From Candidatus Latescibacterota bacterium (GTDB lineage: Bacteria > Latescibacterota > UBA2968 > UBA8231): a stretch of 64,000 nt of DNA. Below, in pieces: positions 16,431 through 46,252 of the stretch. Each line of letters opens with the position of its first letter. Positions within the stretch are counted from its first letter, which is position 1. The stretch covers positions 4,448,001 to 4,512,000 of the forward strand of contig OZ242318.1 of NCBI GenBank assembly GCA_965208105.1, written 5' to 3'. A model generated the notes under the pieces. That model did no database searches and had not been told where the DNA came from. It saw nothing but the letters and a program-made list of their open reading frames with translations. Both the position numbers and the translations under genes were made by a program.

Positions 16431-16814
16431 CTACCCGCAGGTTCCGTCGTTGCGCCGGTGGATGCAGAGCAGGTTGCCCCAGGGATCCTTGACCCAGGCC
16501 ATCCGGCAGCTTCCGCTGTCGACCGGCTCCATCACGATTTCCACGTTCTTCCGGCGTAGTTCTTCCACTGCCTCGTCCACGTTGTCCACCGCCAGGGCGA
16601 TCCCGGGCCTTCCTGCCTGCTCGTCCCACTGGACCAGAGCCAGACTCACCGGGTGGGTGTCGAACTCGGTCCAGGTATTGCGGCTTCCGTCTCCGGAGAT
16701 AACCCCGTCGTTAACGAAGGCCTGATCCAGCCCCAGTACTTCCCGATAAAAGCGAACGGCCTCCCTTGTGTCGGTCACGTGAGAAATCACGAAGTCGATT
16801 CCTTTGACTTGCAT
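16431..16814 (-). CDS. VOC/glyoxalase family protein
   Basis: IDFVISHVTD...VRFYREVLGL...KDPWGNLLCI; ATG 16814 after GGAGG. Confidence 0.85.
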   Translation of the reverse strand: MQVKGIDFVISHVTDTREAVRFYREVLGLDQAFVNDGVISGDGSRNTWTEFDTHPVSLALVQWDEQAGRPGIALAVDNVDEAVEELRRKNVEIVMEPVDSGSCRMAWVKDPWGNLLCIHRRNDGTCG

Positions 16815-16923
16815 AGGTCGAGCCTCTCCTCCTGGAAGAATTCCAGATTGCGCAAATCCGGATCGCCGCAGCAGCCACCGGCGTGTATCCCGAACCATCG
16901 ACACTACCATTGGCCTGACCAGC

Positions 16924-17766
16924 TCATCGCTTTGGTCCTGCAGTTTCTGCCGATCTGTTCTCCTCGAGCCAGGCGACGGCGAAATCCACCAGGCCGCGCT
17001 GCGGCATGAGCTGGCAGGCGGCGAGGGCGACCTCGCCAAGACGGACGGCATTGCCCGCGTCTGATCGCAGAAAGTCCTCGCCGATGCGATCGAAATCCGA
17101 GCTGTCGATGTCCACATCTTCGAAGGTGGTCCATCTCCGCGAATCCGGGGAGATTGGCGCGCCCTCCTTGATGACGCGTTTGGTTGGAAAAGTCGCACGA
17201 TGTTCTGCCAGGTGCAGGGAGGTATTGTTTGCATGATCCACACCGAGAAGGAGGACAAAACCATGCAGTTCGTAAATCCTCGCAAGCGGTGAATGCTCGC
17301 CCAGTCCAAAGGCCAAGGAATGGTCGCCGGTGATATGCGCGGCATGGGGTCCACAGGCGCAAAACGAGACCTGTGGATGAGCGCTGCGGAGGACGTCTGG
17401 TTGCTTGCGGAATGTCTCGGCGATCAGGCCCATGGAACGGGTGGGAGTGAGCACCGGATCGTAGGCCGGCATGTGCTCGCGTATCAGCGGCCACCACGGC
17501 TCGGGGACGGGCGGATTTTTCCAGCCTGTGGGTTCGGAGAGGTCGGGCGAGTGGGCGGGCATGACAAGCGTTCCAGCCGAACTCAGGACCTCCCGAAGGG
17601 CAGCGATGACCGCCACCGATCCTCCGCACACCCATCCCATTGCGCTCAGGGACGAATGCACCAGCACCACCATCCCCGGTCGTAGGCCGAGCGCGCGGAG
17701 GTCGGCCTGTAACGACTCGACGGTGGCGGGAACTTCTGTTCTTTGAACTACCTCCGCTTCACCCAT
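16924..17766 (-). CDS. AAC(3)/YokD family N-acetyltransferase
   Basis: VLVHSSLSAMGWVCGG, GTLVMPA, RSAHPQVSF, NTSLHLAE. Confidence 0.9.
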   Translation of the reverse strand: MGEAEVVQRTEVPATVESLQADLRALGLRPGMVVLVHSSLSAMGWVCGGSVAVIAALREVLSSAGTLVMPAHSPDLSEPTGWKNPPVPEPWWPLIREHMPAYDPVLTPTRSMGLIAETFRKQPDVLRSAHPQVSFCACGPHAAHITGDHSLAFGLGEHSPLARIYELHGFVLLLGVDHANNTSLHLAEHRATFPTKRVIKEGAPISPDSRRWTTFEDVDIDSSDFDRIGEDFLRSDAGNAVRLGEVALAACQLMPQRGLVDFAVAWLEENRSAETAGPKR

Positions 17767-17873
17767 CCCTGTAATCCAGCCTGAATTCCTGGTTAGGTGT
17801 GCACGGTTGGCGGACCTGCGACAATGGGAGGCCGAAGGGAAACCGCAAAAGCAGGGTAGCGAAGAGCTCCGGG

Positions 17874-18446
17874 TTACCGGGTGTTGCTCTGCTCCAGTGC
17901 TTCATTCGACTGATTGCACCATGCCCGCAAGACGACGCAGGGCAGCTCCATCTCGTAGTGGACGTACGCCTCCCTGTGGCGGACGATCTCGGTGAATCCC
18001 ATTGCGGTCCAGAAGCGCAAGGCGGGCACATTGGCCAGGTATACCCGTCCGAGGGCGCAGCGAAAATTGCAGCGGGCCAATATGCGCATCAGGCTTCCGA
18101 TTCCCGCGCGGCCCACTCCACTTCTGCGAAAACCGGGGCGGATCGCCAGTATCGAGATCCACACCTCGCCTGGCCGGGGAAAGTCTTCCGTAAGATGGAA
18201 ATATCCTGCCAGGTCATGGGCGGGGCCGACGTGAAGACTGCGCATGCGGAAACCGCGCTCCTGAGACTCCTGTGCCACGGAATTCTCCACCAGGGCCCCT
18301 ACTTCGCCCTCGTCCACCTCGGCAAAGGTGGGATCGAATGGAATGGTGTCGGCACATTCCAGGAACATGGCGTGGAGCGCGGGAGTTTCCTCTGCTTTGA
18401 CCGCGCGAACGGTGATTTGACCTTCTGACCAGACGAGAGGTATCAT
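17874..18446 (-). CDS. GNAT acetyltransferase
   Basis: IRPGFRRSGVG and NVPALRFWTAMGF. Confidence 0.82.
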   Translation of the reverse strand: MIPLVWSEGQITVRAVKAEETPALHAMFLECADTIPFDPTFAEVDEGEVGALVENSVAQESQERGFRMRSLHVGPAHDLAGYFHLTEDFPRPGEVWISILAIRPGFRRSGVGRAGIGSLMRILARCNFRCALGRVYLANVPALRFWTAMGFTEIVRHREAYVHYEMELPCVVLRAWCNQSNEALEQSNTR

Positions 18447-18553
18447 GGATTCGATTTTTTATCGCTCGAAGGCTGGACAGGCTCCTCAAGGTGCCTGACC
18501 GCGCTACATGGCTGCTAAAATAATATTCGGAATGAAGGTTGGACAGGCCGCAC

Positions 18554-18721
18554 CTAGTGTTCCGTCGCAGAGATAGGTTGGCGCAATTGGGCCGCCGAGG
18601 CGCCCGGCTCACAAGGCGCCTGAGCGAGTCGTACCAGTGGTGTACGGCGAGTGAAGGCAACGCCGTGAGCCGGGATGGATCGGGGGAAAAATGGCGACAT
18701 ATTTCTGCGACGGGACACGAG
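18554..18721. mobile_element. MITE-like palindromic element with ~22-bp terminal inverted repeats
   Basis: CTAGTGTTCCGTCGCAGAGATA ... TATTTCTGCGACGGGACACGAG; core repeated inverted at 25699-25789. Confidence 0.7.
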
Positions 18722-18817
18722 TGCTCGACAGCGCCGCAAGGCAGGTGGCTTTTCGACGGCCGGGCAGGATGCCGTCCTACCCGGGGTCTGCCGAGAGCGC
18801 CTGCCCGGGAGTTGCTC

Positions 18818-21878: not shown

Positions 21879-22087
21879 GCTGGATTGGATTTTGCCCAGG
21901 CCGAACCGCACGCGCCGGCTACGAGTCTTGCCGGCTTTTCAGGATCAGGGTCATGGCCATATCATCATGCTACTATGGCATAAAGATTTGTGGGATAACA
22001 ATTCCCGAATTTGTCAACGGGTGCCCGAAGGTCAAAAGGGAGCAGGCCCAGGGCAAGTCATGCTGTTGGGCGCCTTGTCCAGATGGC

Positions 22088-24713: not shown

Positions 24714-24801
24714 GCTTAACGTCCTGCCAATTGCGGATTCGCGAAGGTGATTGCCAAAAACCAAGCCGTATATGCGGGGCAGCGCAAATTGGTTGCTAAA
24801 C
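24714..24801 (-). repeat. attC-like site
   Basis: Coding strand: GTTTAGC ... CCAATTTGCG/CGCAATTGG inner repeat ... GTTAAGC (perfect GTTRRRY) just upstream of the next start. Confidence 0.68.
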
Positions 24802-24880
24802 GATGCCGGACATTTCTTCGATCAACGGGTTGTCTCGAACTCAAGCAACATTGAGAGGGGCTGTTTGCGTTCTCCAAAAA

Positions 24881-25627
24881 TTACAGTTTCACAATCCGAA
24901 GCTCCCTGAATTTGGCGCCGCTGCGCTGCACCTCCAGCCAGATGAACACCGGGAACTGCGGCTCGAAGGGATGACTTATCTCCACGTTCCCGCTGGATAC
25001 GGTGAAGTTCTCACCATCCAGGGTGCAGAGGACCTCATGCCACTTGCCGACCTCCATCGGCAGGGGGGCATAGGCCTCCCTGCGCCACGGTCCCCTGATT
25101 CCGGCGGCATCGAAGACCTTGCGGCCACTGTCAATCTGGATCGTGTGGGGCTCGTCATCATCGAGGGCGACCAGCACGTTGTTGCCGGCGGCATCCACGA
25201 TGCCGACCATTTTTCCATCCCCATGGGCGCGGGCAAGTGCGGCCACCTGGTATGAGAGCTGAAACGGTTGATGAAGGACGAATTCGGAGATCAGGAAGTG
25301 CTTGCGATCGGAAGTAGGACAGATGATCTCGCCGTCCCTGGCCTGCCACTGCTCCGACAGAGACCACCAGTTTTCCAGGCTCTCGCCGTTGAACAGGTCG
25401 CCGCCTTCATCCTCTAAAGATTGCCATCTGCCTTCTTCTACCAGTTGGCTGACCCGGTCGACATCGCCGCGTCCCATGGCCGCTGCGAGACTGTCGCTTT
25501 CACTCACTCCTTCGGCGGTCGTGGCAACCCCATCGTGGGGATGGGCAAACGACGTGCGGCCCTGAATGTTGATAGCCTTTGATACAAGCAGGACCAGAAT
25601 GGTCGCGGTGAGTATGCGGCCCAACAT
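24881..25627 (-). CDS. Secreted protein with DUF1080/LamG-like domain
   Basis: Signal peptide; LFNGESLENW...W-A-DGEI, GKWHEV, FRELRI. Confidence 0.65.
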   Translation of the reverse strand: MLGRILTATILVLLVSKAINIQGRTSFAHPHDGVATTAEGVSESDSLAAAMGRGDVDRVSQLVEEGRWQSLEDEGGDLFNGESLENWWSLSEQWQARDGEIICPTSDRKHFLISEFVLHQPFQLSYQVAALARAHGDGKMVGIVDAAGNNVLVALDDDEPHTIQIDSGRKVFDAAGIRGPWRREAYAPLPMEVGKWHEVLCTLDGENFTVSSGNVEISHPFEPQFPVFIWLEVQRSGAKFRELRIVKL

Positions 25628-25698
25628 GGCAATTCCTCCCATTGTGGTTCAGGGGCGCAATTCGTGGTGTTTTTTGTGATCTCTTCTCCTCTTTACCG

Positions 25699-25789
25699 CC
25701 GATCCATCCCGGCCCACGGCGTTGCCTTCACTCGCCATACACTACTGGTACGACTCGCTCAGGCGCCTTGCGAGCCGGGCGCTTCGGCG
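25699..25789. repeat. Second, inverted copy of the MITE-like core
   Basis: 91 nt with 5 mismatches to the reverse complement of 18593-18683 (manual alignment). Confidence 0.85.
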
Positions 25790-25817
25790 CTCTCGTTGGC
25801 AGGCTAAATTACGCGCG

Positions 25818-26180
25818 CTAGGTCTCCATGAGGATTTCGACCCGATTCCCGAAGGGGTCCCTGAATTCGAAGCGGTCCATCCCTGGAATGGCAACCGATT
25901 CTTCGATCTCGATCCCCGCCGCTGCAAGCAGGGACCTCCAGGAAGAAATGTCGTTCACCTCATAAGCCAGGTGTGCCTTGGTTGCCCGTCGATTCACGCC
26001 ATCCTCGGTCCCCACGTGGACCTGGCGGTCTCCCACCTGAAGCCAGAATCCGCCCCGTGCTCTCAGCGCTTCCGGCTTCTCGATCTCCGGCAACTTCAGG
26101 ATCTCGCAGTAGAATTGCCTGGCTCTGTCTTCCGCTCCCTTTGGAACGGTGATCTGTGCATGGTGCAAGCTCCTGATCAT
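25818..26180 (-). CDS. VOC/glyoxalase family protein
   Basis: LHHAQI...ARQFY...AHLAY...RDPFGNRVE. Confidence 0.88.
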   Translation of the reverse strand: MIRSLHHAQITVPKGAEDRARQFYCEILKLPEIEKPEALRARGGFWLQVGDRQVHVGTEDGVNRRATKAHLAYEVNDISSWRSLLAAAGIEIEESVAIPGMDRFEFRDPFGNRVEILMET

Positions 26181-26201
26181 TTAGAATTCCACAGCTCGGT
26201 T

Positions 26202-26549
26202 TCAATCCCACGGTTCGGAACCGATACGCAACACGTGGCCGTCAGGGTCTACTACGTTGAATTCAAGAGCCCACGGATATTTTGTAAGCCCCTTGCGGAT
26301 GGTGGCGTCTCGGGAGGAAAGGAAATCGAAGGCCTTTCTGGCATTGTCGACCCCAACGTATATCCAAGTGCCTGGATTTCCCTGGCTGCCTCTGCACAGG
26401 AGTATATTGCATTCATCTCGAGATACACAGGTGAAATCGTCATCTCCCCATTCGGCATTCTTGAATCCCAGGAGATCTACGTAGAATCGAAGGCTTCGCT
26501 GCATATCCGCAACGGAAAGAATTGGATCAATACTGTTGACCTGGTTCAT
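26202..26549 (-). CDS. VOC family (bleomycin-resistance-like) protein
   Basis: PILSVADMQRSLRFYVDLLGF...PW..EF.V.DPDGH. Confidence 0.85.
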   Translation of the reverse strand: MNQVNSIDPILSVADMQRSLRFYVDLLGFKNAEWGDDDFTCVSRDECNILLCRGSQGNPGTWIYVGVDNARKAFDFLSSRDATIRKGLTKYPWALEFNVVDPDGHVLRIGSEPWD

Positions 26550-26633
26550 TATTATCTCCTTTCAGTTTGGACCGTTGCCACGGACCTCGGTGGCATCACA
26601 GCCTGCTCATCACCTACGTATAATGTTCAAAAT

Positions 26634-27254
26634 TTATCGGACCAGGGAGTCGGTGTGCCCTCGATCGAGCACGCCGTGGTCACGCGAAAATTTCTCGACC
26701 TCGGCCGATGACTGCAGGCGCAGGAACTGTATGTGCTGCCAGCGGGGCTCTGACATATAGGCTCGCATGTCGCGACGCTTGCGCCTGTGCTGCGTAACGA
26801 TCCACCACACGAGAGAGTCCTCCTTGTTCCAGACCTTCAGTTGGGGCCAGAACTCCTCATAGTTGGTGCCCCAGAGCAGTTCCTTTGTCCGCCAGCGTGA
26901 CCACGATCGCCGCAGTACGCGCCAGAGGAGAAGGTACATGGGCAGGTCAAGCCAAACGACGGTCTCCAGGCGCGGCCAGAAGGCGCGTTGCGAAAAACTC
27001 ATATATGAGCCAGCGGCTACCCATCCTTCTCCTGCAGTCGCCCTCTCTATGAGACTCTGGAACTCCACCGGGTCCGTCTCGTTCAAGCCCACCCAGCCAG
27101 GCCGCCAATTGAGCGCATCCAACTCCACAAAGGGAACCTGAAGAGCAGTAGCCAGCTGCTTGCCCAGAAGGCTTTTCCCCGAGCAACTGTTGCCAACCAC
27201 GTGGACCCTTCGGCCGATCCGGTGCTTCAGAGATTGCGAGCCTGATTCCTCCAT
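26634..27254 (-). CDS. P-loop nucleotide kinase-like protein (adenylate kinase/FlaR-like)
   Basis: GNSCSGKS, ELDALNWRPGW, VVWLDLP. Confidence 0.8.
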   Translation of the reverse strand: MEESGSQSLKHRIGRRVHVVGNSCSGKSLLGKQLATALQVPFVELDALNWRPGWVGLNETDPVEFQSLIERATAGEGWVAAGSYMSFSQRAFWPRLETVVWLDLPMYLLLWRVLRRSWSRWRTKELLWGTNYEEFWPQLKVWNKEDSLVWWIVTQHRRKRRDMRAYMSEPRWQHIQFLRLQSSAEVEKFSRDHGVLDRGHTDSLVR

Positions 27255-27271
27255 GTCTCACTTCCGTGTTA

Positions 27272-27360
27272 TGTTAAACTTGGCCTGATTGCGAAACCGC
27301 GCAATGGGTCGCAGAAGCCCAAGGCCCTGATGGGCTCCACAGCGCACCCGCTGACTTGGA
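27272..27360 (-). repeat. Degenerate attC-like site
   Basis: + strand GCCTGATTGCGAAACC and GGGTCGCAGAAGCCCAAGGC match the family blocks. Confidence 0.45.
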
Positions 27361-27376
27361 AGCGAAAACATATCCC

Positions 27377-27874: not shown

Positions 27875-28034
27875 TGGGCGAAGCTCTCCCTTTTTCGCTG
27901 AAATTTCACCGGGTTGCGGACCACAAGCACACCAAGTGGCCGCCGAAGCCCAGGTTGTCATGGTCGCCGAAACGCCGAAACCGTGCACGGACGTGGTGTG
28001 CGCGGTTGAGACATCTGTCTTTCGACACCAAAGT

Positions 28035-28940: not shown

Positions 28941-28976
28941 CGTTGCAAAGGATAATGGCTTAAGCGGCCTCCGAGG

Positions 28977-29072
28977 CCGTAACTCGTCTGCCGGTTTCCG
29001 AACCCCGAGCCTGTCGAGGGTTTGCAGTAGGTCAAGGCGCCTTGCGCCGCTGCGGCAACCGCCCCGTTATAC
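28977..29072 (-). repeat. attC-like site (near-identical to 32331-32424)
   Basis: Coding strand GTATAAC-N5-GGTTGCCG ... CGGAAACC ... GTTACGG. Confidence 0.75.
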
Positions 29073-36412: not shown

Positions 36413-36492
36413 ACAAACATTCCTCCGGGACAGCGAATACCAGGGAGTCCGCTGAAGATAGGATTTATGTTCTGCCAAATGTCGCCGATAGT

Positions 36493-37242
36493 TCATGACA
36501 CCTCCTTGTGCGCGAGAGCAATCAGCAGCTTTGAGCCAGTCCCATACGCACTCCCATCCAAGTCCCCATACAGTTGCGTATTGGCAAACCCGGCTTGCGA
36601 GAGTCGGTCCTTCAACTCCTGGCCTGAGTACAAGGTGTGGTGAAACTTGAAAGACCTTACCTGCTGGTCCCGGACCAGGAGCCACTCGACTCGAATCCTT
36701 GTCCAATCATCGAAGATCTCCCGGCGTTGAACGATCAACGTCCCGTCGGGATACACTTCCGAGTTGGCCGCGGAGAATTCTCTGGCCAACACCTCTTTCC
36801 CTTTCATCTCCATGACGAGGACTCCGCCGGGTCTGAGACTCTCGTAAATATTGCTGAGCACTCGCAGGTCCTCGTCCTTGTCATCGAAATAGCCGAAGGA
36901 CGTAAACATGTTGAGCACGAGGTCGTAGGATGAGGGCCGCACGAAACGACGCATGTCTTCCTGCACAAACTCGAGGTCCAATTTCCGCTCGCTTGCCCGC
37001 GCCTTTGCTTTTTGCAGTAGGAACGTTGTAGAGTCTACGCCCGTTACGGAGAAACCACGCTCGGCCAGGACCGTGGAGTGTCGGCCGGGGCCGCAGCACA
37101 AATCGAGGATATGAGTCCCGCCGAACGCCACCAGCGAAAGAATCTTGTCGACTTGACCATCCGCAGATTGAAATCGATCTTCCGGGAACATATAGGGATA
37201 CATTTCCCTCCAGAAGTCTTCGTTTTCAAACCATTCGGACAT
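36493..37242 (-). CDS. Class I SAM-dependent methyltransferase
   Basis: ILDLCCGPGRH, DMR, FTSFGYF, LRPGG. Confidence 0.9.
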   Translation of the reverse strand: MSEWFENEDFWREMYPYMFPEDRFQSADGQVDKILSLVAFGGTHILDLCCGPGRHSTVLAERGFSVTGVDSTTFLLQKAKARASERKLDLEFVQEDMRRFVRPSSYDLVLNMFTSFGYFDDKDEDLRVLSNIYESLRPGGVLVMEMKGKEVLAREFSAANSEVYPDGTLIVQRREIFDDWTRIRVEWLLVRDQQVRSFKFHHTLYSGQELKDRLSQAGFANTQLYGDLDGSAYGTGSKLLIALAHKEVS

Positions 37243-37271
37243 GGACCCTCCAGCGTCAGTCTAAGGACGAA

Positions 37272-37574
37272 CTAGTCGTCTTCGTATTTTGGATCGGGAT
37301 CCGCACCGGCGTTCAGGAGTGCTTCTACCATGTCGGCATTTCCCGCCTCCAGAGCGATGATCAATGCGGGCTCCCCGTCTTCGTTTACCGCATCGGGATC
37401 CGCACCCGACTTAAGGATCGTTTCTACCATATCGGTTTGTCCCGCCTCCACTGACTGTAGCATGGTACGGTTGTCGTCTGCACGCGTAACTTTCGTCTTC
37501 TCCTGCATGGTAGCGCAGGACGAGATCAGAGCAGAGGAACAGATCATCAATGTGAGACCACTTACCTTAGACAT
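37272..37574 (-). CDS. Ankyrin-repeat lipoprotein
   Basis: Lipobox-like ISSC; GADPD...G.PALI.A...G..DMVEALL.AGADP. Confidence 0.75.
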   Translation of the reverse strand: MSKVSGLTLMICSSALISSCATMQEKTKVTRADDNRTMLQSVEAGQTDMVETILKSGADPDAVNEDGEPALIIALEAGNADMVEALLNAGADPDPKYEDD

Positions 37575-37612
37575 TATTTACCTCCTAATTGGATGTCGAA
37601 ATCGGGCATTGC

Positions 37613-37697
37613 GCATAAGGTTTTCGCGGTGCCCGAACCACGAAGCGGTCAAGCGAAGGCGCGCCAGCGCCCAGGCCGCGGGCATGGGGAAATATAG
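37613..37697 (-). repeat. attC-like site, branched subtype (homolog of 42175-42258)
   Basis: GTGCCCG...CGGGCAT stem enclosing ACCACGAAGCGGT and GGCGCGCCAGCGCC hairpins. Confidence 0.6.
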
Positions 37698-37706
37698 GCC
37701 GTGTGG

Positions 37707-38522
37707 TTACTCGTGCGGAGCAACCAGTTTCTCCCTAAGTTTGATCGCCGTTTCGTACGCATCAGCGAGAAACTCAGTGGGCGGTTGAGCGGGATCCTGG
37801 GGCACTGCCTCAATCATGACTGGCCCCTGGTGCAATGTGGGGAATGCTGCCGAAACTGCATCCCAATCTACAATTCCTTCCGTCGGCAACCAGTGAACGT
37901 CGCTCTGTCCGTCGGTGTCTGAAAAGTGCGTCGTGATGAGACGATGGGCCCACTTGGCAAGCACTGCACTAGGGGTGCTGGAATACAAGTAGTCGTGTGA
38001 GCTGTCGTAGCACAAGCCCAGACTCTCCAGGGGAACTTCCTTTAGAATCAAGTCCAAGTGATCGGTTCCCCTTGTATTCTCAAGAGCCAACGCGATCCCG
38101 GCGTTTGCTGTCTCCTCGCCCAAGCGGCGAAAAATATCCAAGCCTTCCGCGTGCGGTGGAGGCGGTTCCGGTCCCCTGGTTACGTGAAGAACAATGCAGG
38201 AAATGGAATGCCGGCTGCAGTACTCTATTAACTCGAGGTTTTCATTAACTAACGCGTCGCGCTCGCTGGGTTTATCAGACCAGAAAGCATTTGCGTTTTC
38301 GTATGTTGCGTGGGCGTGATCGATGGTTAGCCCGGCATCTGCGGTCATCCCCGGCATCTCGTGAGCACGGCCAGATTCCACCAAGGGTTCCAAACTTCCC
38401 ATCCAGAGGAAGGTGTGACTGAAACCACTCTGCTTGATCAGCTTCAAGCGTTTGGCAAGAGGAAGTTGGTAGCCGAACCAGGAAAATGTTCCGAGAGATG
38501 TTGTGGCTTCACCTGAAGTCAT
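37707..38522 (-). CDS. Sugar phosphate isomerase/epimerase (TIM barrel)
   Basis: ALEN, CYDSSH, THFSD..G..DVHWLP..G.VDW. Confidence 0.85.
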   Translation of the reverse strand: MTSGEATTSLGTFSWFGYQLPLAKRLKLIKQSGFSHTFLWMGSLEPLVESGRAHEMPGMTADAGLTIDHAHATYENANAFWSDKPSERDALVNENLELIEYCSRHSISCIVLHVTRGPEPPPPHAEGLDIFRRLGEETANAGIALALENTRGTDHLDLILKEVPLESLGLCYDSSHDYLYSSTPSAVLAKWAHRLITTHFSDTDGQSDVHWLPTEGIVDWDAVSAAFPTLHQGPVMIEAVPQDPAQPPTEFLADAYETAIKLREKLVAPHE

Positions 38523-38535
38523 GAGTCGATACGGC

Positions 38536-38588
38536 GCCTAACTGTTCCGCCGCACGAACCCGAAGGTTCTGCGGCAACAGGATTGCAC
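38536..38588 (-). repeat. Short (~53 bp) attC-like site
   Basis: Perfect GTTAGGC core 14 bp upstream of the next ATG; GCCGCA/TGCGGC stem with GAACC-cgaa-GGTTC tip. Confidence 0.65.
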
Positions 38589-38615
38589 GGAAAGTAGATC
38601 GCCCATGGGCTGGAT

Positions 38616-39134
38616 TTAGTCACTCTTGGTCTGTCCATCCAACAGGGCGACCCCGAATTTCTGGTTCAGAGCCTCCATGTCCGCGAAATCACAGGGATGC
38701 AGTTCGTACCCGGAATGCGAACGCACCTGGTATTCAGGCGAGAGGCATCGTACCCTTCTTCCGCCGATCCATCCCGTGGAGTTCAATTCCGCTTTCGAGA
38801 TCACTTCATCGACCTCTCCTGGACCGTAGATGGCTCCTCCATTTCCAGAGAAAGAGATCACATGAAAGTCGATCGAGCCATGCGATCGGTGACTCATCAC
38901 GTAATTCCGGTCCTTGCGATCATCATCGTAGACATGGGAGAACCCCTTCTCCAGAAGCGCGTCAGTCAGCCGTTCGGAGTCTTCCCACCCAATAATGATG
39001 TCCAAATCTTCGTGGTCCCTGGTTTGCTCGCCCATCAATGCGTCGACGCCCCAACCGCCATCGATCCAAACCGTTATCCCAAGTTCATCAAATAGGTCCA
39101 AAAACCAATGGACATTGTGAATTGGCATTTGCAT
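38616..39134 (-). CDS. Lincosamide/aminoglycoside nucleotidyltransferase-like protein (Lnu/ANT(2'')-like)
   Basis: WIDGGWGVDALMGEQTRDHEDLDI, HSGYE. Confidence 0.85.
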   Translation of the reverse strand: MQMPIHNVHWFLDLFDELGITVWIDGGWGVDALMGEQTRDHEDLDIIIGWEDSERLTDALLEKGFSHVYDDDRKDRNYVMSHRSHGSIDFHVISFSGNGGAIYGPGEVDEVISKAELNSTGWIGGRRVRCLSPEYQVRSHSGYELHPCDFADMEALNQKFGVALLDGQTKSD

Positions 39135-39187
39135 GGATTGGGGGGTATCCTTCAAGGTTCTATAGTGTAATCAGGTAGCCTGGTCTG

Positions 39188-39242
39188 AAACAGCGTAAAC
39201 GGTTGCGCGCAGGTCTCCAAGCTGGATACCGTCGTGTCATGT
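39188..39242 (-). repeat. Short degenerate attC-like site overlapping upstream stop codon
   Basis: Coding strand TGAC-N5-GGTATCC...GCAACC-N6-GCTG; TGA is the stop of the preceding gene. Confidence 0.4.
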
Positions 39243-40286
39243 GGGGTAGGGCCTTGACCCTTTTACAGAAACAGATTCCGCCCATTCCAACAACTGATCC
39301 ACAATTTTGCGGGTCAGGCCGACGGATGGTTCCACGTCAATGGTCAGAGTCGGAGCAGATCTTCTGGCTGCCCAGTCCAACGCTTCCGGCGTCATGTTGT
39401 CCTCAATCCAGGCGCAGGGTCTGTCTCCCACGAAAAGATCGATTGCCGGCACTTTTTCAGCGGGGTCGAAGGGTATTGGCGGAAACGGAATCGTCGGCCA
39501 CGCCGGTAGAGCAAAAAATGGTGCGAGCAGTCGGTTCGCGTCCTCACACCAGCCAGTCGCCCATACCATTTCGAAATGATCGTTCAACTCGGCCAACCAC
39601 CTTCCGTGCATCTCAGACAGGTAGACAGGATAGTCGTCCTCCGGAAAGAAGTGATGAGCATTGAATCCTTTGGGCGTGTCATCAAACCCGAAGGGATTGA
39701 GCACCCCGTCGACGTCGACTAGAAGCACAGGCCGGGTGGATGCGACTGAAAGCGGCAAACCAAAGATAGACAATGGGCGACGGAGCCGAACCTGACGGCC
39801 GTTGTCTCGAATACCGCCATCGCGTTTCCACCCCATCGCTTCGTAGAAGGCGATTCCCTGTTCGTAACCTTCGACTGTCCAGACTATTGCATCGTCATAG
39901 CCGTTCGCGACGAGATGACGAAAGGCGATCGAGGCCAACGCCTTGCCAATGCCGCGGCGCCAATAGGAGGGGTCGATGGCGATGGTATCGAGCTCCCCTA
40001 ATGTGGCGCCAACGGGGTCCCGGCTGGGACCGATGCCGACAAAACCGACAATCTTGCCCGCATGCTCCGCGACCCACCATCGGTGCGGGGCAGACTTCGC
40101 CAGATCTCCGCGCCAACACTCAATATGCTCTGGCGTGACGATGCGATCCGGCTGCTCGATGAGTTCGCCGAATCCTGCATTCCACGAATCGATGTATATG
40201 CGCGCGACGGCTTCGGCGTCAGTAGTGGAGGCCGATCGGATGATTGGAGAAGGTTTTGGTGGAAGTGCGTGTTTCAATTTTCTCAA
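39237..40286 (-). CDS. GNAT acetyltransferase fused to a HAD domain (Swiss-Army-knife RNA-repair-like HAD)
   Basis: N-half WRRGIG...FYEAMGW; C-half LVDVDGVLNP, WATGW, WIED, GLT. Confidence 0.72.
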   Translation of the reverse strand: MRKLKHALPPKPSPIIRSASTTDAEAVARIYIDSWNAGFGELIEQPDRIVTPEHIECWRGDLAKSAPHRWWVAEHAGKIVGFVGIGPSRDPVGATLGELDTIAIDPSYWRRGIGKALASIAFRHLVANGYDDAIVWTVEGYEQGIAFYEAMGWKRDGGIRDNGRQVRLRRPLSIFGLPLSVASTRPVLLVDVDGVLNPFGFDDTPKGFNAHHFFPEDDYPVYLSEMHGRWLAELNDHFEMVWATGWCEDANRLLAPFFALPAWPTIPFPPIPFDPAEKVPAIDLFVGDRPCAWIEDNMTPEALDWAARRSAPTLTIDVEPSVGLTRKIVDQLLEWAESVSVKGSRPYPT

Positions 40287-40295
40287 TCCTGTGTC

Positions 40296-40377
40296 ACATG
40301 ACTTCTAGCCGAATTGCGGAACCAAGGAGGAGGTTGCCGCGGGTCAGGGTGTCGGAGGGGCGGCGCAGCGATTAACA
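40296..40377 (-). repeat. Degenerate attC-like site
   Basis: + strand TGAC-N5-GCCGAATTGCGGAACC end block. Confidence 0.4.
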
Positions 40378-40398
40378 GTCTGTGGCGGGATCGGAGCT

Positions 40399-40848
40399 TT
40401 ACTTCCGAGCGTCCATTGACTCTACCAACAGATCAATCTTGTCGTCGTAGTTGGCAACAAGCTCAGGAAGCGCTCTAATTTCGGCCCAGAAGAAATCGAA
40501 TGGATGGATTACGGATCCGTCCTCGGCAAATTCTCCATGGCGCCAGGTTTCTTCCGTCGGCCCTTCTACAGACAGATGAAAGAACCATCGGTGCTGTAGC
40601 TCATTGCGCCCGCAATCCCGCATGTCTCTGCTATCCCGGGCAAGGAACTGCTCACATCTGAGCCCGGTTAAACCCGTCTCCTCTTTCGCTTCCCGCATCG
40701 CGGCATCCTGAGGATTCTCCCCTGGCTCAATCGTTCCCGCTGGAACCTGAATGCCAGCTTCCGGAGCCCCTGGTTGAGTAAAAAGGAGCAGGAGGCTCCC
40801 GTTGGTTATGTAGGCGTAAGCTCTGTGACGAATATTCATCGTTTTCAT
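40399..40848 (-). CDS. NUDIX hydrolase
   Basis: PAGTIEPGENPQDAAMREAKEETG. Confidence 0.88.
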   Translation of the reverse strand: MKTMNIRHRAYAYITNGSLLLLFTQPGAPEAGIQVPAGTIEPGENPQDAAMREAKEETGLTGLRCEQFLARDSRDMRDCGRNELQHRWFFHLSVEGPTEETWRHGEFAEDGSVIHPFDFFWAEIRALPELVANYDDKIDLLVESMDARK

Positions 40849-40890
40849 CGCGAAATGAGGATGATCTGATCGCCGTGTTCGTTCCCCATA

Positions 40891-40981
40891 TTTTAGCCTC
40901 CATGTGGATGGTGGACCTTCGCATCGGACTGCCGAATGCCAAGGCGCGTCAGCGCCGGAGCGCAACACCACGCTGTTATCG
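40891..40981 (-). repeat. attC-like site
   Basis: + strand GCCGAATGCCAAGGCGCGTCAGCGCC...CACCACGCTGTTATC, 12 bp after the upstream stop. Confidence 0.6.
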
Positions 40982-40992
40982 GTAGTGGAACC

Positions 40993-41550
40993 TCACATAC
41001 TCTCATCTCGCAGCATACCGAAAACCAGAAAATCATGCCACTCATTGTCAAACCTCAGACTGCCTCGCGTCGTCCCTTCATGCCGCATGCCAGCCTTGGC
41101 CAGAACGCGAGCTGATGCTGCGTTCTCCGCTGCGCAGCCGGAGTGAATGCGATGCAAACCCAACGATGTGAAGCCCCATTGGAGTACAGCGCGGAGCGCC
41201 TCAGTGGCGTAACCTTTGTTCCAGCGGTCGGGGAAATACCGATAGGCAACAAAACCGATGTCCATGCTATTCGGCGTTTCAACGCCAAATCCGCGTTCCA
41301 GCCCACAAATCCCAATGAATGCGTGATTCTCTCTCAACTCTACTGCCAAAGAATAATTCCGGCGTGGTGCTTCAGATTGTTGCCTGATCCAGGTGTCCAC
41401 GATCTCTCGAGCTTTGTCTACCTTCTTCAGCGGTTCCCACCGTTCATAGCGGCTCGTTTCGGGCAGACGGTAGAGCCGGAACAGGCTTTCCGAATCGTCC
41501 TGCCGAAATTCTCGAAGGAGCAGCCTTTCTGTGACAAGAGAAAAACACAT
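40993..41550 (-). CDS. GNAT acetyltransferase (RimJ/RimL type)
   Basis: TERLLLR, WNKGYATEA, N.AS.RVL.KAGMRHEG. Confidence 0.9.
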   Translation of the reverse strand: MCFSLVTERLLLREFRQDDSESLFRLYRLPETSRYERWEPLKKVDKAREIVDTWIRQQSEAPRRNYSLAVELRENHAFIGICGLERGFGVETPNSMDIGFVAYRYFPDRWNKGYATEALRAVLQWGFTSLGLHRIHSGCAAENAASARVLAKAGMRHEGTTRGSLRFDNEWHDFLVFGMLRDESM

Positions 41551-41590
41551 GGAAACCGGATCAATTTGCTTTGAGTAAATAACCCATTAC

Positions 41591-41677
41591 CAATACCATT
41601 TTCAGGTTGCCGTATCCGCGAGGCGGGTCGCCGAATGCCAGAGGGCGAATGCGCGGGGCGGCAACCGTGTTGTAGTG
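41591..41677 (-). repeat. attC-like site
   Basis: Perfect inner repeat GGTTGCCG (41605) / CGGCAACC (41659) followed by N5-GTAG. Confidence 0.6.
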
Positions 41678-41716
41678 CGAGGTGTGCATCGGATAATCCG
41701 AAGCTTGACCATGGGT

Positions 41717-42121
41717 TCAGGGTGAAAAGGTCACCTCGAGCTTTATCCCGTCAGGATCAAAGAAGAAGGTAGCGTAGTAGCCTGGTCTGTACTCGGGACA
41801 CTCTATAGGCGGATTCTCGATTATGACATCTTGTAGATTGAGAAGGACTTCTTTGTAGAAAGCGTCTACATGGGCGCGGCTGGGGACCGCGAATGCCAAG
41901 TGGTGCAGCCCCACTGAATTTCGGTCGTACTCCAACGTAGAAGCCGACTTACTCAGTAAGAAAATAAAGCCCTCTTTCGTAAATCTATAGCGCTCGGTAC
42001 GTCCATCCAGGGCCAAGTGGGGCTCGAGTTCGTGAAATCCAAGCCACAGCAATATATGCTCATAGAAGGTTTTTGAGCGATGGAGGTCTGTAACATTGAT
42101 TCTCAAGTGATGCAGCGGCAT
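41717..42121 (-). CDS. VOC/glyoxalase family protein
   Basis: LHHL.INV.D...GLHHLAF...YYATFFFDPDGIKLE. Confidence 0.88.
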   Translation of the reverse strand: MPLHHLRINVTDLHRSKTFYEHILLWLGFHELEPHLALDGRTERYRFTKEGFIFLLSKSASTLEYDRNSVGLHHLAFAVPSRAHVDAFYKEVLLNLQDVIIENPPIECPEYRPGYYATFFFDPDGIKLEVTFSP

Positions 42122-42174
42122 GATTGAAGCCCTGTTCCATTCAACACCTGGATTTCGCGTTTCACCAAGGCTTT

Positions 42175-42258
42175 CGGCAAATGTTCCGCCGTGCCCGAAC
42201 CGCGAAGCGGTTGAGTGAAGGAGCGACAGCTCTGAAGCCGGGCACGGGAGTGTCAGCA
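42175..42258 (-). repeat. attC-like site, branched subtype
   Basis: CCGTGCCCG/CGGGCACGG stem enclosing AACCGC-gaa-GCGGTT and GAGC-gaca-GCTC. Confidence 0.6.
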
Positions 42259-42271
42259 GAAGTCAAGTCCA

Positions 42272-43015
42272 TCAGGCCGCAGTCAGCAAAATGGGCCGAC
42301 CATCAGTAATAACGACGGTATGCTCAAAATGAGCCGAAAGGGATCCGTCCGAGGTTTTCATGGTCCAACCGTCGAGACCTTCAACGGCCCGGGCTGGATG
42401 CTCGGCAATCAAAGGCTCGATGGTGATCACAAGACCATTCCAAAGAGGCTTCGAATCGAGCGGATTGTAGGTGTTCGCAACGATGGGGTCTTCATGGATA
42501 ACCCGACCTATCCCGTGCCCCGTAAGCTCACTGACGACCCAGAATCCTTGTCGCTTCACCTCGTGCTCTACGGCATGGCCGATGCAATTGATCGGTTTGT
42601 TCGCACGAGCTACGCCCACTGCCTTTTCGAATGCCGCACGGGCACACTGGCAAAGTCTAGCGGCTTTCGCAGAGCACGGAGGAATCGGGATGGTGATTGC
42701 CGCATCTGCAATATAGCCGTTCAATTCAGCGGTGACATCCAGGCTTACAAGGTCACCTTGTTCCAGCACTCGATTACCCGGAATACCGTGAACAATCTCG
42801 TCGTTGACGCTGATAAGGTTGACACCAGGAAAACCATAGGTCTCCCGAGGTGCGGATGTTGCCCCGTACCGGGTGAGCGCCAACTCGCCAACACGGTCGA
42901 CTTCCGCTGTGGTTACTCCGGCGCGAACGGTACGCTCCATTGCCTTTAATGTGGCGGCAACCACCTGCCCTGCCTGCGCAAGGCCTTCGAAATCCTCAGG
43001 ACATTCTATCGACAA
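42272..43015 (-). CDS. map: Type I methionyl aminopeptidase (accessory copy)
   Basis: SVNDEIVHGIP, GHGIG..IHE.P, IEP, SAHFEHT; TTG start after AGGAG. Confidence 0.9.
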   Translation of the reverse strand: MSIECPEDFEGLAQAGQVVAATLKAMERTVRAGVTTAEVDRVGELALTRYGATSAPRETYGFPGVNLISVNDEIVHGIPGNRVLEQGDLVSLDVTAELNGYIADAAITIPIPPCSAKAARLCQCARAAFEKAVGVARANKPINCIGHAVEHEVKRQGFWVVSELTGHGIGRVIHEDPIVANTYNPLDSKPLWNGLVITIEPLIAEHPARAVEGLDGWTMKTSDGSLSAHFEHTVVITDGRPILLTAA

Positions 43016-43049
43016 CGAACTACTCCTTTCGAGGGTGATCACTCTCAAT

Positions 43050-43152
43050 TTTGATTTCTGCCAGGCTATTACCGAATGTCGAACCTGGTGCCGGCCAGGT
43101 TGACGACAGGTCATGGCGCGAATGCGCCTGAGGGGCAACCGTGTCGTCAGGC
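43050..43152 (-). repeat. attC-like site, distal arm eroded
   Basis: Coding strand GCCTGAC-GACAC-GGTTGCC...GGCGCATTCGCGCC hairpin. Confidence 0.5.
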
Positions 43153-43226
43153 CGATGGTAATCGAATTCATTGGCCTTCCCCTGTACATTTCGGCAAGTC
43201 CCCCTTGGCCGTGACCGAATTGACAG

Positions 43227-43970
43227 TTACTTTACCCCTCCGTATATGGCGTCGCCACCGAGTCGATAGAAGCAATCGACGATAGCGAAGCCTGCCTTCT
43301 TGAGGTGGCGGAAGTGCCAGTCCAGCGGTAACCCGGCCTCCTCTCCCTTCCAGGGACCTTGAATCTGAGATCTCCTGTCCCGTACCTCTTGACTCCGGTT
43401 CTCCAGAAACTCCTCCCAAAATGACTGCCAAGGAGTCATTCCCTGCCTGGACGGATCCCCGACTGATCGAGAACGGATCCAAACCGACTGAATCTGCGGG
43501 TCCTCACAGCCCGCGTGGTCTGCGTTGAGAAAGATTCCCCCTTTCTTCAGGAGTTGATAAAACTGCCTGTACAACCTATCCAGCTGAGAGCTGGTGAACC
43601 AATGCAATGCCGTCGCAGATAGTATGGCGTCTACCTTGGCAGGACAATGCGAGGTCCAATCGTCATTACGGAGGTCTGTCTCTATCAGCTCGACGCGATT
43701 CCTGAATCGTTGCAGGCGGGTACGCGCTATATCAAGCAAGGTAAAGTCGAAGTCCAAGCCGAAAGTGTGGACTGATGGGAAGGCGGCAAGAACCTCCGCC
43801 ATGACGCTGCCGGTTCCGCAGCCAACATCGAGTATCAGTTCCGGTACCTCGTGCTTGGCTCGAATGAGCGCCACCAGAGTACGTAACCGCTCCGGCCGGT
43901 CAGGGTTATAGATCTCCTGCATGGAGTCCCATCGAGAGACCCAGTAGTCGGTATCAGTATTGCTCGCCAT
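43227..43970 (-). CDS. Class I SAM-dependent methyltransferase
   Basis: ILDVGCGTG, SATALHW, GGIFLNADH. Confidence 0.88.
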   Translation of the reverse strand: MASNTDTDYWVSRWDSMQEIYNPDRPERLRTLVALIRAKHEVPELILDVGCGTGSVMAEVLAAFPSVHTFGLDFDFTLLDIARTRLQRFRNRVELIETDLRNDDWTSHCPAKVDAILSATALHWFTSSQLDRLYRQFYQLLKKGGIFLNADHAGCEDPQIQSVWIRSRSVGDPSRQGMTPWQSFWEEFLENRSQEVRDRRSQIQGPWKGEEAGLPLDWHFRHLKKAGFAIVDCFYRLGGDAIYGGVK

Positions 43971-43987
43971 TGTTGCCTGAAGCTGGT

Positions 43988-44172
43988 GGCTAACAGTGAA
44001 GCCGGCTGACAATTCGTCTAACTGTCTTTAAACGAACACCAGATTTTTACAAATACCGCAAAACTTTAATTATCTGACGCGAAAGTAGGTAGTTGGGCAA
44101 ACAGTCGCAATTAATACCTGAAACCATAGGCCAAGACGCGTCAGCGTCGCAGCGGCGAGCTTGCTGTTACAA
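43988..44172 (-). repeat. Long (185 bp) attC-like element with AT-rich core
   Basis: Coding strand TTGTAACAG...CTGTTAGCC termini; family hairpin GACGC-tgac-GCGTC; homologous to 46073-46252. Confidence 0.62.
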
Positions 44173-44194
44173 TAAGTGAAACAGGAAACAGCGG

Positions 44195-44926
44195 CTAATT
44201 CGGCTTGCGGGCGAGTACTCCCAGGTGGCCCGTGGAGAAGCGCTGCTTCCCGTATCCAGCCAAGTACCTGACGCGAAAACCTAACTCCCGCAACATGCAA
44301 CACAGCTCTGAACTTCGGTGCAGGATCAGCTCATGTCTCTCGTGCGATCGTCGATACGACTCACCGATCTTGCGGAATGAAGTAATCTCACGAGTTATTC
44401 TGCAGCCGTTGCCATGTGGCCGGGTTTCGACGAGAACCGCCCAATCGCTGCCGGCGTACCATGAACGAGTAAGGTCTTGACCGTTGCGGGGGCCCTGCCG
44501 CAGGACATCGAAGATGAAAACACCACCTGGTCTCAACGCATTGTAAACCTGGGAAAATAATGATCCAATGGCACGGTTGGCGTTGCGTTGATCGAGTCGA
44601 TAGCTGAGACATTCGCCGATTGCAGTTACGGCGTTACAGCTTGGCAAATCGACCTCCAACATGGAGGCTTGTCTGAATTGAGCTTCCGGGGCCTTCCGGC
44701 ATGCGATGCGAAGCATTGAAGCGGAGATATCTATGCCAAGTACCTTGTAGCCAGCGCGGGTGAGGGCAGAAGCCCAGATCCCGCTTCCACAGCCGAGATC
44801 AACAACCATTCCGTTGGGGATCCCGCAATTACCGAGAAGGTCCAGCAATCCCGGCGCAGACCTCTCGGCAAACCGTCCGAATCCTTCGTCGTGTATATAC
44901 GCCAGATCTTCTTCGTACGCTTTCAT
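44195..44926 (-). CDS. Class I SAM-dependent methyltransferase
   Basis: YEEDLAYIHD.GF, VDLGCGSG, LRPGGVFIFD. Confidence 0.9.
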   Translation of the reverse strand: MKAYEEDLAYIHDEGFGRFAERSAPGLLDLLGNCGIPNGMVVDLGCGSGIWASALTRAGYKVLGIDISASMLRIACRKAPEAQFRQASMLEVDLPSCNAVTAIGECLSYRLDQRNANRAIGSLFSQVYNALRPGGVFIFDVLRQGPRNGQDLTRSWYAGSDWAVLVETRPHGNGCRITREITSFRKIGESYRRSHERHELILHRSSELCCMLRELGFRVRYLAGYGKQRFSTGHLGVLARKPN

Positions 44927-44970
44927 GATCGGCTGCCAACCAAATGCCAGGCCTTCCTTCACTCCATTTC

Positions 44971-45058
44971 TTGTAGTGATTCGCCGGTTTGCGAACCTCC
45001 GAACCGGCTTGCGGCGGGGGAAGGCTCGATCAGCGCCGCAAGGCAATCTGTGCTATTT
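44971..45058 (-). repeat. Degenerate attC-like site
   Basis: + strand TCGCCGGTTTGCGAACC ... AAGGCTCGATCAGCGCCGCAAGGCAATC. Confidence 0.6.
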
Positions 45059-45074
45059 GTCGAAGTATCGGAAT

Positions 45075-45433
45075 TCATTCGGTAGGGAAGTCCAGCTCGT
45101 CCTCTGGTATGCCCTGCATTTTGCCGTGTTCAATGGCCTCCGACCAGGACAGTCTGTCAGAATGAGACGCCTCGAAAACACGGTCGTTGTACACAATGAT
45201 CAATTTATCCTCGTTCCAAAATGGGCATACCATCCCTCTACGACGTACGGCTGAAATTCCTCTATCGCCTCGCGTCCGCATTTTATCCAATAGATGTGCC
45301 AGCGCCCTTTGTTGCCTTCATAGTCGATCGCCTTGTCGTCGTCAGAAATCGAAGCACCAACGACTCTGTAATTGTTGATTATTGAAGGGTCCGAAAGCCC
45401 CTCTGAAATCACGCATCCTTTCCAACAGCCCAT
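45075..45433 (-). pseudogene. Hypothetical protein split by a 1-nt frameshift
   Basis: ORF1 ends GWYAHF and ORF2 continues WNEDKLII...GIPEDELDFPTE; the join needs one extra T in the T4 run near 45218-45221. Confidence 0.65.
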
Positions 45434-45445
45434 TGCGTATTCCCT

Positions 45446-46069
45446 TTATGAAATTATTTCAAAAACCAGCCGCAGACCGAGGAAGGACAACACTGTGCCC
45501 GTTGCGCGATCCACCCAGCACTTGCAGCGATCATAGAGAGCCTTTACGCGTTGTGTCGAGGCGAAGAGGGCAAGTCCGGAATGGAAAATCAGGGAATTGA
45601 AGAAAACCGAACCAATTGATGCCATCACCGCCCAACTTGGAAGATTTGGCGGAAAGATTGCCGTGAATATACCCCCAAAAAATATTGCTGCTTTCGGGTT
45701 GGTCATATTGGTTGCGATCCCCAGGCGATAGGCTTGCCAGGAGGTGCGAGGTTCCGCTTGTAGGTCGGAGGAAAACGCCTGATCGGCACGGCGCCACATT
45801 GCGATCCCAAGGTAAAGCAAGTAGACTCCCCCAAGCAGTCGAAGCGTCCAATATAGCCAAGCCAATTTGTCAACCAGGAAGTTCAGGCCGCCCATGGCGG
45901 TGCTGGACCATAAAAGAGCTCCTGTCGCGATCCCCAGGGCCGTCATGATGCCCGCCGGACGAGTCCGGCTTACCGCGGTTTGGGTGACGAGCAGCACATT
46001 GGGACCGGGACTGATCAAGGCGAGGAGATGGACCGCCACAAGACTACCATACAGCGCTGCGTAATCCAT
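45446..46069 (-). CDS. LysE/RhtB family exporter
   Basis: SPGPN, GGVYLLYLG, NMTNPKAAIFF. Confidence 0.9.
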   Translation of the reverse strand: MDYAALYGSLVAVHLLALISPGPNVLLVTQTAVSRTRPAGIMTALGIATGALLWSSTAMGGLNFLVDKLAWLYWTLRLLGGVYLLYLGIAMWRRADQAFSSDLQAEPRTSWQAYRLGIATNMTNPKAAIFFGGIFTAIFPPNLPSWAVMASIGSVFFNSLIFHSGLALFASTQRVKALYDRCKCWVDRATGTVLSFLGLRLVFEIIS

Positions 46070-46072
46070 GCC

Positions 46073-46252
46073 CTCTACATTTAGTTTCGGCTGACATCAG
46101 CCGGTAACCGCATTTACCCGATAAATTGGTTCCCATTTATCGCGCTGACCGTTGCTTATCTGACACGAAGGTACCTATGAGGGGGAACAGTCGCAACAAA
46201 TATCCGGAACGGTGGGAAATTTGCGTAACCTGTTGCGGCACTTGATATAGAA
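46073..46252 (-). repeat. Diverged second copy of the long element at the array head
   Basis: Shares CGGCTGACA, TTATCTGACRCGAARGTA and AACAGTCGCAA blocks with 43988-44172 at near-equal spacing. Confidence 0.62.

Follow-up and report, generated by a model that had tools for sequence, protein, structure and literature searches.

The subject of this study is a run of minus-strand open reading frames (ORFs) lying between purF and an upstream anchor gene in the genome of a Candidatus Latescibacterota bacterium (G000, a single 4.85-Mb contig; its congener is referred to as G001). The window, which is the whole stretch of 64,000 nucleotides that was analysed, spans G000 4448001-4512000. An initial annotation, made from the sequence alone, described about 38 functionally unrelated ORFs punctuated by attC-like palindromes, in the layout of a group of clustered attC sites without the integron integrase IntI (CALIN), and suggested that the array was either mobilised in trans or now frozen. 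Both the layout and the suggestion are upheld: the sites are clustered, co-oriented and decayed, with no integrase nearby, and the locus is, with a probability of about 0.7, a satellite cassette array of an integron-like system that is now largely frozen.

There are indeed 38 ORFs, all on the minus strand, at 16431-46069 (234-1692 bp), and their Pfam functions are unrelated, including GNATs, methyltransferases, VOC, NUDIX, LysE, HIT, and peptidases. One limit had to be moved: because the glyoxalase gene (16431-16829) stays with purF in G001, the end of the array was set at 16924, and the remainder is a true array. As had been judged by eye, it is less GC-rich than its surroundings (0.552 in 16924-46069 versus 0.633 and 0.641 in the two flanks). 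Of the neighbours named initially, purF stands, while the label 'ceramidase-like' for the anchor gene rests on a Pfam match of 18.8 bits, below the 32.1-bit cut-off. The nearest named homologues of the window purF are from Candidatus Latescibacterota (69-75 %), in agreement with the proposed lineage on the side of the FCB group, and sponge and marine metagenomes are among the sequencing runs that contain this stretch. By Pfam, the array genes include no toxin-antitoxin family, and a PADLOC run with 22 of the 38 proteins returned nothing beyond generic matches of the HIT, NUDIX, and ankyrin types.

16924-46069, minus: cassette array, 37 ORFs, read from the 46-kb end (ORF list, Pfam, junction profile)
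14536-16829, minus: downstream flank, purF and glyoxalase; no linkage to the array in G001
46352-48004, minus: upstream chromosomal anchor gene, weak ceramidase-like match; adjoins the head in G001 too

Recombination sites at the cassette junctions

A junction DNA profile was trained on 40 sites, all outside the window, and used with a threshold of 7 bits. It matches 16 of the 37 window junctions, all on the minus strand, against maxima of 1.8 bits on the plus strand and 4.0 bits over 1480 shuffles; the other 21 junctions have no site by this profile. The covariance model (CM) scan that had been proposed as a check identified nine window sites at E<=0.02 (all minus, all within 24714-44172, top 40 bits) and, at E<=10, 13 window matches, two of which are weak and outside junctions. 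Scores elsewhere reach 97 bits, many of those top sites being in the training set. The related palindromes noted initially are thus present at junctions, although two intergenic palindromes, at 18553-18718 and 25692-25814, are not of this family and belong to a miniature inverted-repeat transposable element (MITE).

Well-preserved relatives of the window junctions were found by BLAST in other low-GC arrays of G000. Intact sites of the family are 81-104 nt in length, with an AAC core first, a GTT core last, and an outer stem with two to three inner hairpins. The stems covary: in 74 intact sites from G000 and relatives, 89.4 % of cells are paired and 18 of the 28 pairs have two-sided changes (0 of 500 shuffles). 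Slid controls pair at 31-44 %, and the core helix is 99.7 % paired. Based on these complementary AAC/GTT cores and the folding stem, the family appears to be of the attC type, with both features mostly broken in the window. The conserved extrahelical bases of canonical attC are absent from the family, the outer-stem bulge being missing from 43 of 69 scored sites (74 examined), with 21 bulged at a variable base or side and six mismatched.

The family sites are clustered and co-oriented in each cluster across the genome, not scattered, whereas the initial annotation had named a randomly oriented dispersed repeat as the finding that would speak against an array. In the window, as judged with the family-specific model, the clustered attC-type sites are co-oriented with the genes and lie between one stop and the following start, as in a CALIN. 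Rfam has no attC family matching these sites. A plain AAC...GTT folding scan was dropped as too noisy.

Both core triplets are kept in three of about 19 recognisable window sites by eye, or, under a less strict pattern, in five of 13. When G000 sequences are left out of the profile, the median score is 19.9 bits in the window versus 40.1 in the home array, which lies beside the recombinase described below, and the window scores also differ from those of four left-replichore arrays (p=1e-4). Scores in the home array fall with distance from attI (rho -0.39, p 0.007); there is no such gradient in the window (rho 0.29, p 0.33) and no fresh site near its head.

44971-45058, minus: eroded attC, both cores lost (profile, CM, eye)
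44125-44172, minus: left half of attC fused to the internal leader (CM, leader profile)
43066-43152, minus: eroded attC (21.9 bits CM)
42176-42258, minus: eroded attC of a second subtype, stem kept, cores lost (38.4 bits CM; fold z -3.05)
41590-41678, minus: eroded attC (27.8 bits CM)
40891-40981, minus: attC, left arm intact, right arm gone (30.0 bits CM)
40296-40385, minus: eroded attC; homology to the same cassette in another G001 array starts at the core
39165-39245, minus: eroded attC closing the GNAT/HAD cassette (profile, G001 comparison)
38536-38592, minus: short unbranched attC-like hairpin, GTTA core (fold z -4.04, 0/200 shuffles; no family-profile match)
37613-37697, minus: eroded attC (19.4 bits CM)
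33294-33381, minus: eroded full-length attC behind the TolB-like gene (profile, alignment)
32331-32424, minus: attC, both cores intact (28.3 bits CM)
29880-29930, minus: attC remnant, middle deleted (alignment to G010 cassette)
28977-29072, minus: best-preserved window attC, both cores intact (40.0 bits CM)
27904-28001, minus: strongly eroded attC (9.1 bits hidden Markov model, HMM; 11.5 bits CM)
27275-27362, minus: eroded attC (15.1 bits HMM)
24714-24801, minus: eroded attC, orthologous to a G001 site (33.8 bits CM)
21985-22075, minus: weak attC remnant, both core triplets (7.4 bits HMM)

It was considered whether the TolB-like gene splits one attC into halves; this was dropped, as 33294-33381 aligns over its full length and the supposed left half scores under the null.

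Dispersal on both strands, as for a repetitive extragenic palindrome (REP) or MITE, is seen for the 165-nt element and not for the attC family. This element is missing from the orthologous junctions of G001. It has long terminal inverted repeats and is present also in G001, G008, G014, and G016, and there is a longer variant with about 15 near-identical copies. From its target it may be IS630-like.

18553-18718, no strand: MITE, terminal inverted repeats, TA target, not attC (92 full-length genome copies, 47 plus and 45 minus)
25692-25814, no strand: partial copy of the same MITE (similarity to the 18553-18718 element)

Leaders and the short integrase

The absence of a tyrosine recombinase at the array ends, as first described, holds for the whole window (PF00589 and TIGR02249 six-frame searches), and the nine tyrosine recombinases in G000 are each at least 0.76 Mb away. 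The array is nevertheless not headless, having leaders at 46104-46255 and 44016-44124. Its upstream end matches the DNA between a distant recombinase (G000 2061252-2062190) and the first cassette of that recombinase, and the homology of the window head to this home locus runs up to about 25 nt from the integrase start position. The home array beside the recombinase is 50 kb long, with 47 sites, and is 2.4 Mb from the window. Using a leader profile built from four leaders outside the window, seven leader copies were identified in G000, two of which are in the window (46119-46255 and 44016-44118) and only one of which is beside an integrase.

46104-46255, minus: head leader (60.2 bits, leader profile; alignment)
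46168-46196, minus: predicted sigma-70-like cassette promoter Pc, TTGCGA-17 nt-TACCTT (conserved motif, putative function)
46104-46134, minus: putative decayed attI with a broken palindrome, in which the GTT core remains (G at 46108), from sequence only
44016-44124, minus: second, internal leader, with predicted promoter boxes at 44082-44110 and a decayed attI (G at 44022) (26.4 bits)

The palindrome with a GTT core at the end of the leaders is probably attI. In the window it is decayed, and a pattern for the intact palindrome gave no match to the window heads at three mismatches. The leader boxes of the type TTGCGA-17 nt-TAC(C/T)TT are read as the predicted cassette promoter; the motif occurs eight times in 4.85 Mb, seven of these in leaders, and the boxes and spacer length are conserved in all seven G000 leaders and in 14 of the 18 leaders overall. 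A generic promoter scan did not pick up these boxes. In the window, the promoter boxes are intact while the attI palindrome is broken. At 46094-46108, just behind the attI core, there is a 13-nt insertion relative to G001, which forms a small palindrome with the following bases.

The internal leader is 75 % identical to the G001 orthologue of the head. One clade (98/99) unites both window leaders with the G001 orthologue and a leader at 3.58 Mb; its branch lengths are 0.22, 0.32, and 0.49 versus 0.02 for G001. The fusion of the internal leader with an attC left half marks it as a local duplicate of the head that was joined imprecisely, and the leader at 3.58 Mb is likewise a copy of the window head. 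At least eight leaders are present in G001, one of which keeps 62 integrase codons and two of which keep only the integrase start; since these sister leaders retain integrase stubs, it is likely that an integrase was also lost at the window locus. The G001 leaders at 258 kb and 4035 kb have near-identical attI heads, the same unrelated upstream gene, and an altered first promoter box.

The genome search for IntI suggested at the outset found no canonical IntI in G000, and there is none in G001. The sole matching integrase is the home-array recombinase, a short enzyme interrupted at codon 58 by an in-frame stop; the protein database contains an intact allele with 98 % identity (P0001). Its best match in sequence and fold is 2a3v, the Vibrio integron integrase. 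Compared with 2a3v and three canonical IntIs it is without about 41 residues, including the IntI insertion, and its structure model has no helix between residues 194 and 210, suggesting that the IntI-specific I2 helix is missing. It scores 231.5 bits against TIGR02249 (cut-off 265), in two separate stretches, and 210.7 bits against NF040815 (cut-off 220).

With the G000-trained profile, family sites adjoin seven of ten short-integrase loci of relatives and none of five canonical IntI loci. Between 14 and 86 sites each, with no IntI over the cut-off, are found in G000, G001, G010, G014, G016, G030, and G040 (completeness 91-96 %); G008 and G021 have both IntI and family sites. In G000, G001, G010, G014, and G016, the leader is the short integrase's own upstream DNA. 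The family model matches only eight of 80 short-integrase loci from other phyla, therefore it is lineage-specific and uninformative on the arrays of other phyla.

Other short-integrase copies were also seen. At the head of the G021 array (L132 12270-12728), the short integrase is broken, has a longer N-terminus, and lies on the cassette strand instead of being divergent. Inside the orthologous array of G001, at 170057-170623 (L058 5057-5623), there is a truncated copy on the opposite strand, beside insertion sequences. Stops or breaks in the gene in the long-read relatives G000, G016, G014, G010, and G030 may reflect frequent inactivation or assembly error.

Cassette exchange, related strains, and orientation

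The anchor gene, leader, and array are conserved in G001 at 161-207 kb, with 20 profile matches of 8-56 bits. Identical content in relatives, which had been named as evidence against a cassette array, was not found: eight of the 37 window genes are common to the G001 orthologue, with their order unchanged, six of them whole and two as 5′ fragments. The orthologous array has a fresh first site and a first cassette unlike that of the window. The shared genes sit in the distal two thirds, and the oldest cassettes are probably those at the purF end. The array is absent at the anchor orthologues of G008 and G021 and at the purF orthologues of 13 other relatives; the locus is therefore genus-specific among the genomes searched. 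A metagenome scan with the anchor protein found no close relatives (best 39 %).

Window genes are also found in other G001 arrays (LysE 85 %, GNAT/HAD 71 %, DUF6176 70 %), and two window methyltransferases (87 % and 78 %) are attC-bounded cassettes in an integrase-linked array of G010. The GNAT/HAD homology to another G001 array extends from the GTT core through the TAAC core. Comparisons of these shared cassettes show movement as units bounded between the G and the TT of the core (G/TT).

36493-37242, minus: methyltransferase, a clean attC-bounded cassette in G010 (87 % identity; both flanking sites deleted in the window)

For related strains, contigs from four runs of four studies were compared over 27200-47100. 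Strain X11 is colinear over 30984-36337, 42994-45257, and 45805-47100, the last of these pieces being 97 % identical and having the same first cassette. In X9, 45727-46184 is skipped, which contains attI and the second promoter box. Both X9 and X11 skip approximately 29050-29805, with a break inside a gene, and both X5 and X9 skip 33338-34652 (1315 nt, TolB-like gene), with ends in or near attC remnants. With a first cassette common to related strains, in which pieces go missing through imprecise deletions, the array is by now frozen for the most part.

The G000 origin of replication is at 2.98 Mb (dnaA, skew minimum) and the terminus is near 0.40 Mb. Ten of the 11 G000 site clusters are co-oriented with replication, the window array being the exception (one opposed in 11, binomial p=0.015 against a 55 % gene bias, the clusters not being independent); its G001 orthologue is also opposed. 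According to Loot et al. (PMC5371416), 25 of 30 sedentary integrons are in the co-oriented, low-excision arrangement, with at most 22 cassettes in the other. The orientation bias of the clusters is only suggestive as a sign of bottom-strand recombination with replicative resolution. Head-on orientation as the sole cause of erosion was rejected, since arrays co-oriented with replication on the replichore of the window have decayed to the same degree (median 23.7 bits, p=0.38). On the same grounds, the tempting reading that the array persisted by shedding its sites has no advantage over age or the loss of attI.

Every site cluster on the replichore that runs from 2.98 Mb past 0 to 0.40 Mb is eroded, in contrast to the good preservation of the four large clusters on the other replichore. 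The GC skew is reversed relative to the surrounding replichore at G000 4430-4464 kb, including window 1-16000, and at G001 3871-3971 kb.

Several individual genes were noted. Proteins distantly related to AAC(3), Lnu/ANT(2''), and bleomycin-binding proteins are encoded at 16924-17766, 38616-39134, and 26202-26549, respectively, all under the NCBIfam cut-offs. An extra type I methionine aminopeptidase, over the TIGR00500 cut-off, is a cassette at 42272-43012, and a GNAT fused to an RNA-repair-type HAD domain forms one cassette at 39237-40286, found likewise in a G001 array. The product of the longest array gene (34805-36496) has 563 aa, a weak match to a FlgD-type Ig domain, and several paralogues in the genome; the gene begins at the methyltransferase stop, after loss of the attC between the two genes. 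The TolB-like propeller gene (33376-34632) is 91 % identical to G000 3169085-3170335, a copy cut at its own attC core and adjoining an insertion sequence. At 45075-45433, one gene is broken in two by a frameshift; all four strain runs have one extra base near 45217, therefore the frameshift is specific to G000 or an assembly error. At 14062-14378, a weak cspA thermoregulator match, under the gathering score, lies over a cold-shock gene.

Proposed history and comparison with known systems

In the favoured explanation, a complete head of integrase, promoter, and attI would have stood behind the anchor gene in the ancestor of the genus, with the integrase later lost and the promoter and attI kept. 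Comparison between genomes shows that cassettes were then gained and lost by site-specific recombination at the G/TT of attC and attI, from a pool shared with the other arrays of the genome; the enzyme was most likely the short Xer-like integrase, working in trans from its gene elsewhere. Subsequently, in the G000 lineage, point mutation and deletion eroded attI and most attC sites, MITEs entered the array, and the head was duplicated into it. Promoter boxes and most reading frames may since have been kept by selection, change now being mainly by imprecise deletion, so that the cassettes would be turning into ordinary chromosomal genes. The dN/dS ratios of the shared genes are 0.07-0.29, similar to the 0.10-0.24 of flanking genes.

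Several points weigh against this history. No integrase remnant lies beside the window head, where a tblastn search for an integrase pseudogene returned only a chance-level match (E 2.4). Three of the ten short-integrase loci have no site nearby, and canonical IntI is over the cut-off in eight of 41 relatives. The I2 domain is reported to be necessary for cassette capture (PMC7790495), which makes the resolution of hairpin substrates by an enzyme without it hard to account for. The shuffle control for stem covariation ignores kinship of the sites. The dN/dS ratios are pairwise and not assignable to the G000 lineage. Finally, the gap at 33338-34652 is cassette-sized and could be a precise excision, being indistinguishable from a deletion between repeats.

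Such an excision would fit the strongest of the alternatives, in itself unlikely, that intact integrase alleles in the population still work on the array in trans at a low rate, using the few sites with both cores. The intact P0001 allele, the three of about 19 sites with both core triplets, and the 1315-nt block skipped by two strains agree with this; the broken attI palindrome, the strain without attI, the same first cassette in the strain at 97 % identity, deletion joints elsewhere inside genes, and the lack of a fresh site near the head do not. Marginally less probable again is that no integrase was lost in place, the leader and cassettes having moved as a block from another array by duplication or insertion-sequence rearrangement, or the cassettes having been seeded at a secondary site of the attG type. 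Secondary-site insertion is published (10.1101/2022.09.11.507474), but insertion at an attG brings along no leader of 150 nt that contains promoter and attI. Moreover, G001 retains the anchor-head junction, and the sister heads stop at or inside the integrase start. On the other side, both genomes are rearranged at the array ends, pieces of the G001 orthologous array are found at G000 3.16 Mb, and the internal and 3.58 Mb leaders are copies of the window head.

It is improbable that a canonical IntI, now gone from G000, built the arrays and that the short recombinase is a bystander. The reported need for I2 in capture and the canonical IntIs of relatives, including G008 and G021 with their family sites, speak for it, but neither G000 nor G001 has IntI, no family site is found at the five IntI loci, the leader is short-integrase upstream DNA in five genomes, a broken short integrase heads the G021 array, and 43 of 69 scored sites have a bulge-free outer stem. 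An ordinary genomic island with a dispersed REP or MITE between its genes, to which the two MITE copies and the 21 junctions without a site might point, can be dismissed on the strand and boundary tests, the attC family being clustered, one-stranded in each cluster, and at cassette boundaries in relatives while the MITE is strand-random.

The satellite array, now largely frozen, thus remains preferred. With neither the IntI insertion nor conserved extrahelical bases, it appears to be an integron-like array outside the IntI class. In the literature searched by title and opening of the abstract, with most subscription journals outside its coverage, there was no description of cassette arrays with an insertion-less integrase. 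New here is an end stage in which the promoter is kept, att sites are lost, the head is duplicated, and cassettes can be traced to other arrays. A wider proposal, for which the odds seem to us even, is a distributed integron in which one insertion-less recombinase serves at least seven attI/promoter platforms trading cassettes, platforms ending by att-site loss with promoter and genes kept. If so, the platform life cycle would convert mobile cassettes into fixed operon-like genes, hairpin-site recombination would need no I2 domain, and an enzyme class so far overlooked would account for some of the CALINs, as its satellites, in phyla 'without integrons'.

This locus bears on how CALINs arise, for which rearrangement, the loss of intI, and mobilisation by a remote integrase have been proposed (Cury et al. 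2016; PMC4889954), and on whether they keep a link to an integrase. It offers a dated series from the intact home platform through stub-bearing satellites and a congener array fresh at its head to the frozen array here, with natural active and dead attI and attC variants for an integrase without the domain held to define integron chemistry. It also presents a route by which a lineage of marine symbionts fixes cassette genes, some of them coding for distant relatives of enzymes that modify aminoglycosides and lincosamides.

As in CALINs (PMC4889954, PMC8618304), attC-type sites are clustered without a nearby integrase. The window array is larger than most (more than 10 sites are found in 6.6 % of CALINs; PMC4889954), has two recognisable attI/promoter heads, and is one of seven heads in the genome; its family sites are branched and mostly without flipped-out bases. 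Sedentary chromosomal integrons (VchIntIA, PDB 2a3v) likewise have a divergent integrase, leader, attI, and co-oriented AAC/GTT-bounded cassettes, and ten of the 11 G000 clusters are in their low-excision orientation (PMC5371416); in contrast, the G000 integrase is without about 41 residues, the window array has the opposite orientation, and no toxin-antitoxin family was found. The archaeal XerA and short tyrosine recombinases (NF040815; PDB 4a8e, 5hxy) align continuously with the short integrase, without the IntI insertion, although the latter is under the family cut-off and goes with cassette arrays, not with the resolution of chromosome dimers. Integrase loss followed by stable arrays is also seen in the inactivated integrons of Xanthomonas (10.1101/2025.06.18.660453), with remote CALINs at conserved distant loci. 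There, a canonical IntI and one locus are described, whereas here there are several attI-headed platforms, a non-IntI enzyme, and decayed att sites.

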